Of a DNA stretch of 4,487 nucleotides, positions 381 through 3,911 are shown piece by piece. The position numbers were made by a program, and so were the translations under genes. The DNA is from a virus (lineage: Duplodnaviria > Heunggongvirae > Uroviricota > Caudoviricetes). Location of the stretch: IMG/VR virus record IMGVR_UViG_2690316121_000001, positions 1 to 4,487 of that record. The stretch is one strand, 5' to 3'. The first letter of the stretch is position 1; every line of letters begins with the position of its first letter. The notes beneath the pieces are model-generated. The model searched no databases. It was given only the letters and a program-made list of their open reading frames with translations, and had not been told where the DNA came from.

Positions 381-395
381 GGGGGAGGGTAAATC

Positions 396-722
396 GTGGC
401 TGACTGGCAAATACCAATCATCATTCTTGCCGGAGCTTCGCTGGTTGCTGGCTTTATCCTGCTGAAGAAGCATAAAGACCGTGATCAAAAAGTCGAAGTT
501 CTCTATGGGTATCCGGCGAACAGCACAACATGGCTGACTATTTACCACTACCGAAAATCAGGCCGTTGGGTATTCGAATGGGATGATCTGTTTGCTGAAA
601 AGCGACCAAAGTCATGGGGAGACATCAGCGAATGCATGATGTTTGAAGAAAGAAAATCCGGCGCAACCCGAGAAGAGTTTAACGAAGCGTGGAGGCGATT
701 AAGTGAGAGGGGGTATCAATGA
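396..722 (+). CDS. Hypothetical small membrane-anchored protein (108 aa), not present at this position in lambda
   Basis: GTG start at 396 preceded by a strong SD (GGGGGAGGG, 381-389). The N-terminus WQIPIIILAGASLVAGFILL is a hydrophobic helix followed by KKHKDRD (positive-inside), then a ~85-aa charged, Trp-rich soluble domain. Stop TGA at 720-722; the ninB SD/ATG follows 22 nt later. No homolog recognised. Confidence 0.65.
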   Translation: MADWQIPIIILAGASLVAGFILLKKHKDRDQKVEVLYGYPANSTTWLTIYHYRKSGRWVFEWDDLFAEKRPKSWGDISECMMFEERKSGATREEFNEAWRRLSERGYQ

Positions 723-744
723 GCAGAATTAAGTCGAGGTAACA

Positions 745-2292: not shown

Positions 2293-2461
2293 CCCATCCC
2301 AAACCCTTCAATACCAGAAAGAAAGCGTCGAGCGAGCTTTAACGTGCGCTAACTGCGGTCAGAAGCTGCATGTGCTGGAAGTTCACGTGTGTGAGCACTG
2401 CTGCGCAGAACTGATGAGCGATCCGAATAGCTCGATGCACGAGGAAGAAGATGATGGCTAA
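2285..2461 (+). CDS. ninF: NinF protein
   Basis: 58 aa, [58 protein letters not shown], near-identical to lambda NinF as recalled, with a Cys-rich zinc-ribbon-like motif. Start taken at the lambda-equivalent ATG, not the upstream ATG of the track ORF. Confidence 0.9.
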
Positions 2462-3065
2462 ACCAGCGCGAAGACGATGTAAAAACGATGAATGTCGGGA
2501 ATGGTTTCACCCTGCATTCGCTAATCAGTGGTGGTGCTCTCCAGAGTGTGGAACAAAGATAGCACTCGAACGACGAAGCAAAGAACGCGAAAAAGCGGAA
2601 AAAGCAGCAGAGAAGAAACGACGACGAGAGGAGCAGAAACAGAAAGATAAACTGAAGATTCGAAAACTCGCCTTAAAGCCCCGCAGTTACTGGATTAAAC
2701 AAGCCCAACAAGCCGTAAACGCCTTCATCAGAGAAAGAGACCGCGACTTACCATGTATCTCGTGCGGAACGCTCACGTCTGCTCAGTGGGATGCCGGGCA
2801 TTACCGGACAACTGCTGCGGCGCCTCAACTCCGATTTGATGAACGCAATATTCACAAGCAATGCGTGGTGTGCAACCAACATAAAAGCGGAAATCTCGTT
2901 CCGTATCGCGTCGAACTGATTAACCGCATCGGGCAGGAAGCAGTAGACGAAATCGAATCAAACCATAACCGCCATCGCTGGACTGTCGAAGAGTGCTGGG
3001 CCATCAAGGCGGAGTATCAGCAGAAACTCAAAGACCTGCGAAATAGCAGAAGTGAGGCCGCATGA
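2451..3065 (+). CDS. ninG: NinG / Rap recombination protein
   Basis: 204 aa, [46 protein letters not shown]..., essentially identical to lambda NinG (Rap) as recalled. Overlaps the ninF 3' end by 11 nt; stop TGA at 3063-3065 overlaps the ninH ATG. Confidence 0.93.
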
Positions 3066-3268
3066 CGTTCTCAGTAAAAACCATTCCAGACATGCTCGTT
3101 GAAGCATACGGAAACCAGACAGAAGTAGCACGCAGACTGAAATGTAGTCGCGGTACGGTCAGAAAATACGTTGATGATAAAGACGGGAAAATGCACGCCA
3201 TCGTCAACGACGTTCTCATGGTTCATCGCGGATGGAGTGAAAGAGATGCGCTATTACGAAAAAATTGA
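3062..3268 (+). CDS. ninH: NinH protein (small, probable DNA-binding)
   Basis: 68 aa, [68 protein letters not shown], matching lambda NinH as recalled. The stretch [18 protein letters not shown] looks like a helix-turn-helix. ATGA overlap with ninG. Confidence 0.93.
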
Positions 3269-3911
3269 TGGCAGCAAATACCGAAATATTTGGGTAGTTG
3301 GCGATCTGCACGGATGCTACACGAACCTGATGAAAAAACTGGAGACGATAGGATTCGACACCAAAAAAGACCTGCTTATCTCGGTTGGCGATTTGGTTGA
3401 TCGTGGTGCAGAGAACGTTGAATGCCTGGAATTAATCACATTCCCCTGGTTCAGAGCTGTACGTGGAAACCATGAGCACATGATGATTGATGGCTTATCA
3501 GAGCGTGGAAACGTCAATCACTGGCTGCTTAATGGCGGTGGCTGGTTCTTTAATCTCGATTACGACAAAGAAATTCTGGCTAAAGCTCTTGCCCATAAAG
3601 CAGAAGAACTTCCGTTAATCATCGAACTGGTGAGCAAAGATAAAAAATATGTCATCTGCCACGCCGATTATCCTTGTGACGAATACGAGTTTGGAAAGCC
3701 AGTTGATCATCAGCAGGTAATCTGGAACCGCGAACGAATCAGCAACTCACAAGACGGGATCGTGAAAGAAATCAAAGGCGCGGACACGTTCATCTTTGGT
3801 CATACGCCAGCAGTGAAACCACTCAAATTTGCCAACCAGATGTATATCGATACTGGCGCAGTGTTCTGCGGAAACCTCACATTGATTCAGGTACAGGGAG
3901 AAGGCGCATGA
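3246..3911 (+). CDS. ninI: NinI Ser/Thr protein phosphatase (lambda PPase, metallophosphoesterase)
   Basis: 221 aa from ATG 3246 ([25 protein letters not shown]...), near-identical to lambda NinI as recalled. Metallophosphatase motifs GDLHG, GDLVDRG and GNHE are present. The track ORF begins upstream at 3171, but the lambda-equivalent start at 3246 gives the canonical 221 aa. Overlaps ninH by 23 nt. Confidence 0.93.

Follow-up and report, generated by a model that had tools for sequence, protein, structure and literature searches.

The window analysed here, a 4,487-nt stretch of DNA, belongs to a lambda-like prophage of E. coli, and the genes listed for it all lie on the plus strand. The last gene before the region of interest is ren (33-323), which matched the Ren-like exclusion protein family phrog_142 (E 3.6e-42) and is annotated as 'protein ren' in RefSeq. 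It is followed by ninA (320-403), which encodes a hydrophobic protein of 27 residues (MTIYITELMTGLLVIAGLFIWGRVNRG) and is the same ORF as NinA of phages 21 and P22. The intrinsic terminator tR2 (349-380) was identified by a terminator scan and by RNA folding, and is annotated as tR2 in Sf6 and as a lambda-like terminator in P22. A Shine-Dalgarno (SD) sequence, GGAGG (384-388), recognised in the sequence and by alignment with lambda and phage 21, lies 7 nt 5' of the GTG start codon of a 108-residue CDS (396-722). This CDS belongs to the family of Sf6 gp46 (phrog_5903) and is hereafter called the gp46-like gene. Downstream of it lie ninB (745-1191; PF05772 NinB, E 4e-48), an allele that differs from lambda ninB, a Dam-like methyltransferase gene with an internal stop (1188-1715), ninE (1712-1888), an uncharacterised phrog_1511 gene (1891-2292), ninF (2252-2461), ninG (2454-3065), ninH (3062-3268), a NinI-like phosphatase gene (3246-3911) and a Q-like antiterminator gene (3908 onward). 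The interval 381-744 consists of the gp46-like ORF, its ribosome-binding site and a 22-nt spacer to the ninB ATG at 745. By its location between tR2 and Q, in the orientation of the nin genes and closely packed among them, the gp46-like gene occupies a nin-region position. An Rfam scan of the window gave zero matches.

Two other genes of the window are of separate note. The N6-adenine methyltransferase gene (1188-1715) carries an in-frame amber codon (TAG, 1290-1292) and is a pseudogene with an internal stop in RefSeq; in the prophage of E2348/69 its homologue is intact. The phrog_1511 gene (E 4e-79, 'unknown function'), located between ninE and ninF, encodes a 133-residue protein with a charge-rich, helical-looking C-terminal part. 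Near the start of the window, the gp46-like gene is the least understood gene, which agrees with its earlier selection as the strongest uncharacterised candidate.

The terminator tR2 is composed of an 8-bp G+C-rich stem and an 8-nt loop (349-372) followed by TTTTTATT (373-380), and the whole hairpin and T-run lie inside the ninA ORF. The ATG of ninA overlaps the ren stop codon (ATGA), and the ninA stop codon overlaps the GTG of the gp46-like gene. NinA of phage 21 is a 26-residue ORF (MTIYITELITGLLVIAGLFIWGRGKS) that overlaps a tR2-type terminator, and the 26-residue NinA ORF of P22 is arranged likewise. Together, ninA, tR2 and the SD form an 84-bp cassette, with GGAGG as its last part, that was almost invariant behind three types of upstream gene: ren in the window, lambda and phage 21, a DnaB-type helicase gene in Sf6 and mEp213, and a primase gene in Oslo. 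The annotators of Sf6 labelled this cassette a mosaic boundary sequence. As a separate matter, translation through tR2 within ninA could modulate the efficiency of the terminator, and effects of ribosome-to-terminator distance at tR2 are the subject of PMC4824070.

The preliminary description of this region had placed the gp46-like gene in the gap beside tR2 and suggested comparison with the NinA proteins of P22-like phages as occupants of the same slot. That comparison was negative, as NinA is a separate ORF of 26-27 residues around tR2, and the window carries its own ninA as well, with a stop codon that overlaps the GTG. NinA of P22, phage 21 and lambda is similar to the gp46-like protein in that its gene lies after replication genes or ren and before ninB and in that its product is small and hydrophobic. 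The two differ in that NinA starts with MTIYITEL, contains tR2 within its ORF and is coupled through ATGA, whereas the gp46-like gene begins at 396 in another frame. The gp46-like protein was rejected as a NinA homologue on the grounds of the separate NinA ORF at 320-403 and of there being no sequence common to both.

Alignment of the window with lambda indicated that ren, the ninA/tR2 cassette and the sequence GGGGGAG are identical in the two, and that ninB of lambda starts at once thereafter, preceded by the same G-rich run that provides the SD of the gp46-like gene. Homology to lambda ends at approximately position 389, after which the window carries the 327-nt gp46-like gene and the different ninB allele. 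These results bear out the earlier account of an extra gene relative to lambda, in which ninB comes straight after the tR2 cassette, and of a 108-residue ORF with a GTG start and an SD sequence.

The content of the position behind the cassette was assessed in 112 IMG/VR contigs that contained the exact cassette, with the first downstream gene scored in each. NinB was encoded there in 56 of the 112 contigs, a 68-residue protein with two hydrophobic helices (by reading of the sequence) in 27, and a member of the gp46-like family in 11. The remaining contigs carried ORFs of 92 residues (8/112), 71 residues (6/112), 90 residues with one hydrophobic helix, again by reading of the sequence (2/112), and 60 residues (2/112). 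Given this diversity of first genes, the slot behind the cassette is polymorphic, and the gp46-like gene is one cargo among several alternatives. Three of the alternatives, the gp46-like family included, are predicted membrane proteins by reading of their sequences. The cassette is the fixed joint of this arrangement, and alternative small genes are swapped behind ninA, tR2 and the SD.

Rare database variants of 133-137 residues (P0001-P0014) were also encountered in which NinA is fused in frame to the gp46-like protein through short, G-rich linkers (GGGG, GGDGS, GEGS or GGGGEGS). Such a fused variant would be a two-helix membrane protein. Each fusion cluster comprised one or two sequences, and the fusions may stem either from genuine indels in the G-run or from errors in sequencing the homopolymer. 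Fusion was rejected as the normal form of the protein, as none of the 16 DNA loci inspected was fused.

The gp46-like gene is under strong purifying selection. Compared with the copies in Sf6 and Oslo it showed 10-12 synonymous and 1-3 non-synonymous changes, which correspond to pN/pS values of 0.03-0.13. It was present in 108 of 5426 complete E. coli genomes (approximately 2%), enteropathogenic strain E2348/69 among them, and in 107 of the 108 carriers at least 80% of its length was covered and counted as an intact frame. In these genomes it was always annotated as a hypothetical protein. Because of the purifying selection, the distant homologues described below, the intact frame and a confident domain model, the gp46-like gene is a real gene; a chance ORF was excluded by the selection together with the distant homologues.

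The encoded protein matched phrog_5903 ('unknown function') over residues 1-108 of 108 profile positions (E 9.1e-76), and was 98% identical over 107-108 residues to the Sf6 gene 46 protein (AAQ12235.1) and to gp62 of vB_SosS_Oslo. In Sf6 and in Oslo the same protein occupies the same position directly behind the ninA/tR2 cassette. The surroundings differ, with a helicase or primase gene upstream in Sf6 and Oslo and not ren as in the window, and with other small ORFs downstream in Sf6 and not ninB. All of these records are annotated solely as hypothetical or of unknown function. The phrog_5903 profile was matched by all 42 members of alignment A2. The gp46-like protein carries the family motif GYP ... 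W.T.Y ... EWDDLF..RP, whose columns were invariant or nearly so. Residues G38, P40, D63, D64, F66 and R70 were nearly invariant across the family, and the close subfamily additionally kept YGYP, TWLTIYH, FEWDDLF and RP.

Homologues with identities down to approximately 30% were found in other genera and phage types. An exhaustive HMMER profile search of 1.84 billion representatives returned 37 clusters (at 50% identity), all of 73-154 residues, with neither a domain fusion nor a named member, and a second profile search, of a set of 5.8 billion proteins, yielded no further member that was named or carried a Pfam domain. Scans of the gp46-like protein against Pfam and NCBIfam gave only noise (FG-GAP_3, E 0.083; DUF2627, E 0.19). 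PADLOC-DB models matched no family at E values up to 1 for this protein, NinA, the Goslar homologue and two distant members. The best PDB match to the single sequence had an E value of 1.3, and a 26-sequence profile found nothing in the PDB. Foldseek comparison of the predicted structure with the BFVD viral models returned family members alone and no other structural neighbour. No paper on the protein came up in the literature under its accession, locus tag, motif or PHROG identifier, and the literature on Sf6 gp46 and the nin region contained nothing about it. The earlier statement that the protein belongs to no recognisable family therefore stands for Pfam, NCBIfam, PADLOC and the PDB, where no confident match to a characterised family emerged, and for structural neighbours, but it does not hold for phage protein catalogues, in which phrog_5903 is matched over the full length and Sf6 gp46 at 98% identity. 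The protein is already catalogued and has never been characterised; it has been 'hypothetical' since the Sf6 genome deposit.

The gp46-like protein begins with a predicted transmembrane helix, a signal anchor, at residues 6-23 (IPIIILAGASLVAGFILL; 411-464), for which the mean Kyte-Doolittle hydropathy was 2.54 over 17 residues and the structure model placed a helix at residues 5-27. The N-terminal flank (MADWQ) is acidic, with a net charge of -1. On the other side the helix is followed by a basic juxtamembrane linker, KKHKDRDQK (residues 24-32; 465-491), and flank charges were alike in the family members that have a membrane helix. These features match the single N-terminal membrane helix followed by KKHKDRD of the earlier account. 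The remainder forms a conserved soluble domain (residues 32-108; 489-719), delimited by the domain model and by alignments A1 and A2. The part beyond the helix is charged, and the protein contains six Trp among its 108 residues, so that the charged, Trp-rich C-terminal domain that had been noted was also recovered.

By sequence-based prediction, the protein has the properties of a bitopic inner-membrane protein, with one hydrophobic helix, a positive C-terminal flank and no signal-peptidase site. A cleavable signal peptide was considered and rejected, given the acidic n-region, the h-region of 18 residues and the lack of an AxA-type site downstream. We infer an N-out/C-in topology with the soluble domain in the cytoplasm, because the flank charges fit the positive-inside rule, which is a statistical rule, because the Cys/His-containing relatives described below would need a reducing compartment, and because neither a signal-peptide n-region nor a cleavage site was seen.

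Structure prediction and a Foldseek search had been proposed earlier, and the AlphaFold model of the domain alone was confident (pLDDT 92.6, pTM 0.82). It contains a three-stranded antiparallel sheet (residues 32-39, 46-52 and 57-63) and a long loop, after which come one more strand, which is short, and a helix at the C-terminus. The long conserved loop carries DDLF..RP. The most conserved motif in the alignments spans residues 60-71 (FEWDDLFAEKRP; 573-608), and this segment is a candidate interaction surface.

The N-terminus of the family was classified in 89 sequences. A membrane helix was present in 50 of the 89; its sequence was variable, and in the examples listed the N-terminal flank was acidic and the C-terminal flank mostly basic. 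Another 16 sequences had a short basic amphipathic helix, such as MGKFLGKILKCFNDWKWKIL in KookSpook and MRLLKWLLSVF in Enterobacterales prophages. A zinc-knuckle arrangement, with C-x4-H before strand 1 and CxxC in the hairpin of strands 2 and 3, occurred in 11, and the remaining 12 fell into none of the three types. Because the core is kept while the N-terminal module is swapped, the sequences suggest that the core carries the activity of the family and that the exchangeable N-terminus merely sets where the core acts. The Cys/His ligands were confined to the 11 distant members. The gp46-like protein itself has a membrane helix before strand 1 and the hairpin YHYRKSGRW, and it had no match to DUF1660 (PF07874). 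One distant knuckle member (P0077) aligned with the N-terminal half of DUF1660 at 18.8 bits (E 0.0025), against a cut-off of 21.4, and a shared zinc-knuckle beta-hairpin ancestry of the two is possible. All four ligands are missing from the gp46-like protein. DUF1660 is itself an uncharacterised prophage protein family, so the link offers no hint as to function.

The distribution of the family was sporadic and included both lambdoid prophages and virulent phages. In lambdoid prophages of other Enterobacterales, the homologue lay 3' of a replication module (lambda P-like, DnaB-type or Toprim primase), sometimes with a Ren-like HTH gene in between, and was followed by a run of small nin-type genes. 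It was found directly behind the gene for DNA polymerase A in a 78-kb contig, in the early region after the RNA polymerase gene in a T7-like contig, and, in two more phage contigs, surrounded by small early genes. In Skatevirus the homologue lay between the primase/helicase and helicase genes, and copies were also found in the jumbo phage Goslar (Goslar_00199; locus L003, 2453-2773) and in the T5-like phage KookSpook (CDS0038; locus L004, 2438-2740). The Goslar, KookSpook and Skatevirus (INT55, seszw and IME207) proteins have a 75-residue core homologous to that of the lambdoid protein (tblastn E 1e-10 to 1e-13; identity 42-45%) and are predicted to fold in the same way. They differ from it in having a short basic amphipathic N-terminus and no transmembrane helix, and they come from obligately lytic phages. 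In Skatevirus INT55 the homologue is an 87-residue ORF with a GTG start (locus L005, 2462-2725), and the deposited call is a 40-residue fragment (2603-2725); INT59 and three seszw entries had no annotated feature at the match.

Since the Goslar and KookSpook copies were 57% identical to each other and only approximately 42-45% identical to the lambdoid copies, the sequences indicate gene exchange between these unrelated virulent coliphages. At every locus examined the homologue was co-oriented with early or replication genes, and no conserved partner or neighbour gene was found across the 13 loci compared. A mobile accessory gene typically shows such sporadic spread across lineages within early regions.

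In lambda, transcription from pR enters the nin region only once N has brought about antitermination at tR2. A simple consensus scan found no sigma-70-like site in positions 1-1300, a scan that a weak or non-sigma-70 promoter could escape. The terminator scan found no strong terminator between the gp46-like gene and ninB, the sole strong terminator lying upstream of the gp46-like gene. A moron or lysogenic-conversion gene brings a promoter of its own and in most cases a terminator as well; this layout was not seen here, a weak result in that it comes from a consensus scan only. From this layout and from lambda biology, transcription of the gp46-like gene would require N-modified RNA polymerase that has started at pR and passed tR2, and the gene would be expressed in lytic growth or upon induction and not in the quiescent lysogen. 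Translation would proceed from the GGAGG of the cassette, and the overlap of the ninA stop codon with the GTG makes coupling to ninA translation possible. The nin region is dispensable for growth, and the nin genes are summarised as non-essential in PMC8022706.

The reading that we favour, tentatively and as possible rather than probable, is that the gp46-like protein is a membrane-tethered, lytic-phase host-takeover or counter-defence protein whose cytoplasmic domain binds its target at the membrane. The gene would be a mobile, non-core accessory cargo of the delayed-early (nin) operon. A lytic-phase role is suggested by the homologues in virulent phages and by co-orientation within early regions, and an accessory rather than a core role by the sporadic distribution, the 57% identity between Goslar and KookSpook and the lack of a conserved partner. 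Inserted in the inner membrane through its single N-terminal helix, the protein would expose its short acidic N-terminus on the outer side and keep the domain of 77 residues in the cytoplasm. This domain, as modelled, would be a compact beta3-loop-beta-alpha module with a conserved aromatic and acidic surface, EWDDLF...RP. It appears to have no enzyme-like features, and its action would most likely be stoichiometric; alternatively, residues D63, D64 and R70 could make up a small site for catalysis or metal binding instead of a surface for binding a partner. At the cytoplasmic face of the membrane, the domain may bind a protein of the host or the phage and inhibit it or change its location, and the outcome would be a host-takeover or counter-defence function that favours lytic development. 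A more ambitious form of this proposal, which we regard as unlikely, is that the conserved 75-residue core has an unrecognised fold and represents a new family of phage inhibitors of a host immune system or machine at the cytoplasmic face of the inner membrane, with N-terminal modules that direct the core to different places in each phage.

The position of the gene behind replication modules raises a different explanation, likewise unlikely, in which the tethered domain binds a helicase, primase, loader or polymerase of phage or host and thereby anchors or tunes replication complexes or protects DNA. Family members do lie directly behind lambda P and ren (the window and locus L010), a DnaB-type helicase gene (Sf6, L014 and L017), a Toprim primase-helicase gene (Oslo and L013) or the DNA polymerase A gene (L011 and L012), and the Skatevirus INT55 copy sits between primase/helicase and helicase genes. 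However, the lambdoid position is also the start of the nin region, and the ninA/tR2 recombination joint largely accounts for its synteny. Association with every type of replication module argues against a specific partner inside any one of them, small uncharacterised genes and not replication genes adjoin the homologue in Goslar, KookSpook, the T7-like contig and L018, and in half of the sampled contigs ninB follows the cassette directly, with no slot gene. A somewhat more doubtful explanation is superinfection exclusion during lytic growth, by a block of DNA entry like that of T4 Imm or of another early step of secondary phages. The T4 proteins Imm and Sp are early membrane proteins of a lytic phage that exclude superinfecting phages, and the homologues in virulent phages are compatible with such a role because lytic phages also make excluding early membrane proteins. 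The gp46-like protein is itself a small, predicted inner-membrane-anchored product of an early operon, and two alternative cargoes of the slot are also small, with membrane helices predicted by reading of their sequences. Against exclusion, it is the predicted cytoplasmic domain that is conserved; the sequence of the helix is variable, and approximately 30% of the classified sequences have an amphipathic helix or a Cys/His knuckle in its place. No exclusion or defence family was matched in Pfam, PHROGs or PADLOC. T4 Imm, HK97 gp15, P22 SieA and SieB and lambda Kil are all small, inner-membrane-anchored and non-essential proteins with early or moron-type locations. The gp46-like protein is similar to them in size class, predicted anchor, accessory character and early position, but no likeness in sequence, profile or fold was detected, and it differs from them in that its conserved part is a predicted cytoplasmic domain and in that its gene has no predicted promoter of its own.

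A host-toxic effector of the envelope or of division, Kil-like or similar to a holin or antiholin, in which the helix is active and the soluble domain regulatory, seems very unlikely. The single hydrophobic helix would suit it, and lambda-type early operons encode small division inhibitors, with kil annotated in the same prophage. Selection, however, acts on the soluble domain and leaves the helix free to vary or vanish, the lysis cassette lies further downstream in the same prophage with the gp46-like gene outside it, and comparison with Pfam and PHROGs gave no likeness to the Kil, DicB or holin families. Most improbable of all is defence expressed from the prophage, that is, superinfection exclusion or abortive infection in the lysogen. 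This idea, from the preliminary description, is in keeping with a small membrane protein in prophages of approximately 2% of complete E. coli genomes and with the adjoining ren, which is linked to Rex exclusion. It conflicts with the location of the gene 3' of tR2 in a pR operon that is repressed in the lysogen, with no promoter-like site in the consensus scan and without the usual moron layout of promoter and terminator. Homologues in obligately lytic phages, some of them lacking a membrane anchor, the predicted cytoplasmic location of the soluble domain and the absence of a PADLOC match likewise speak against it. Among the functions proposed earlier, prophage-expressed superinfection exclusion and abortive infection are thus the least favoured, and host manipulation, as lytic-phase takeover or counter-defence, would appear to fit better. 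Overall, the preliminary description was confirmed in what it observed and partly supported in how it interpreted the gene.

A small uncharacterised ORF in a nin region would not in itself surprise a phage specialist. The features that set the gp46-like gene above the average are its strong constraint, the confident model, its mobility across lineages and its swapped addressing modules. It is an easy target for testing in view of N-terminal modules that are swapped in nature and of a confident model that has no structural relative. If the proposed host-takeover or counter-defence role is true, the gene would represent a compact, horizontally mobile early-gene module common to lambdoid prophages, including that of enteropathogenic E. 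coli E2348/69, to unrelated lytic coliphages and to Salmonella phages, a distribution that is typical of counter-defence and host-takeover genes.
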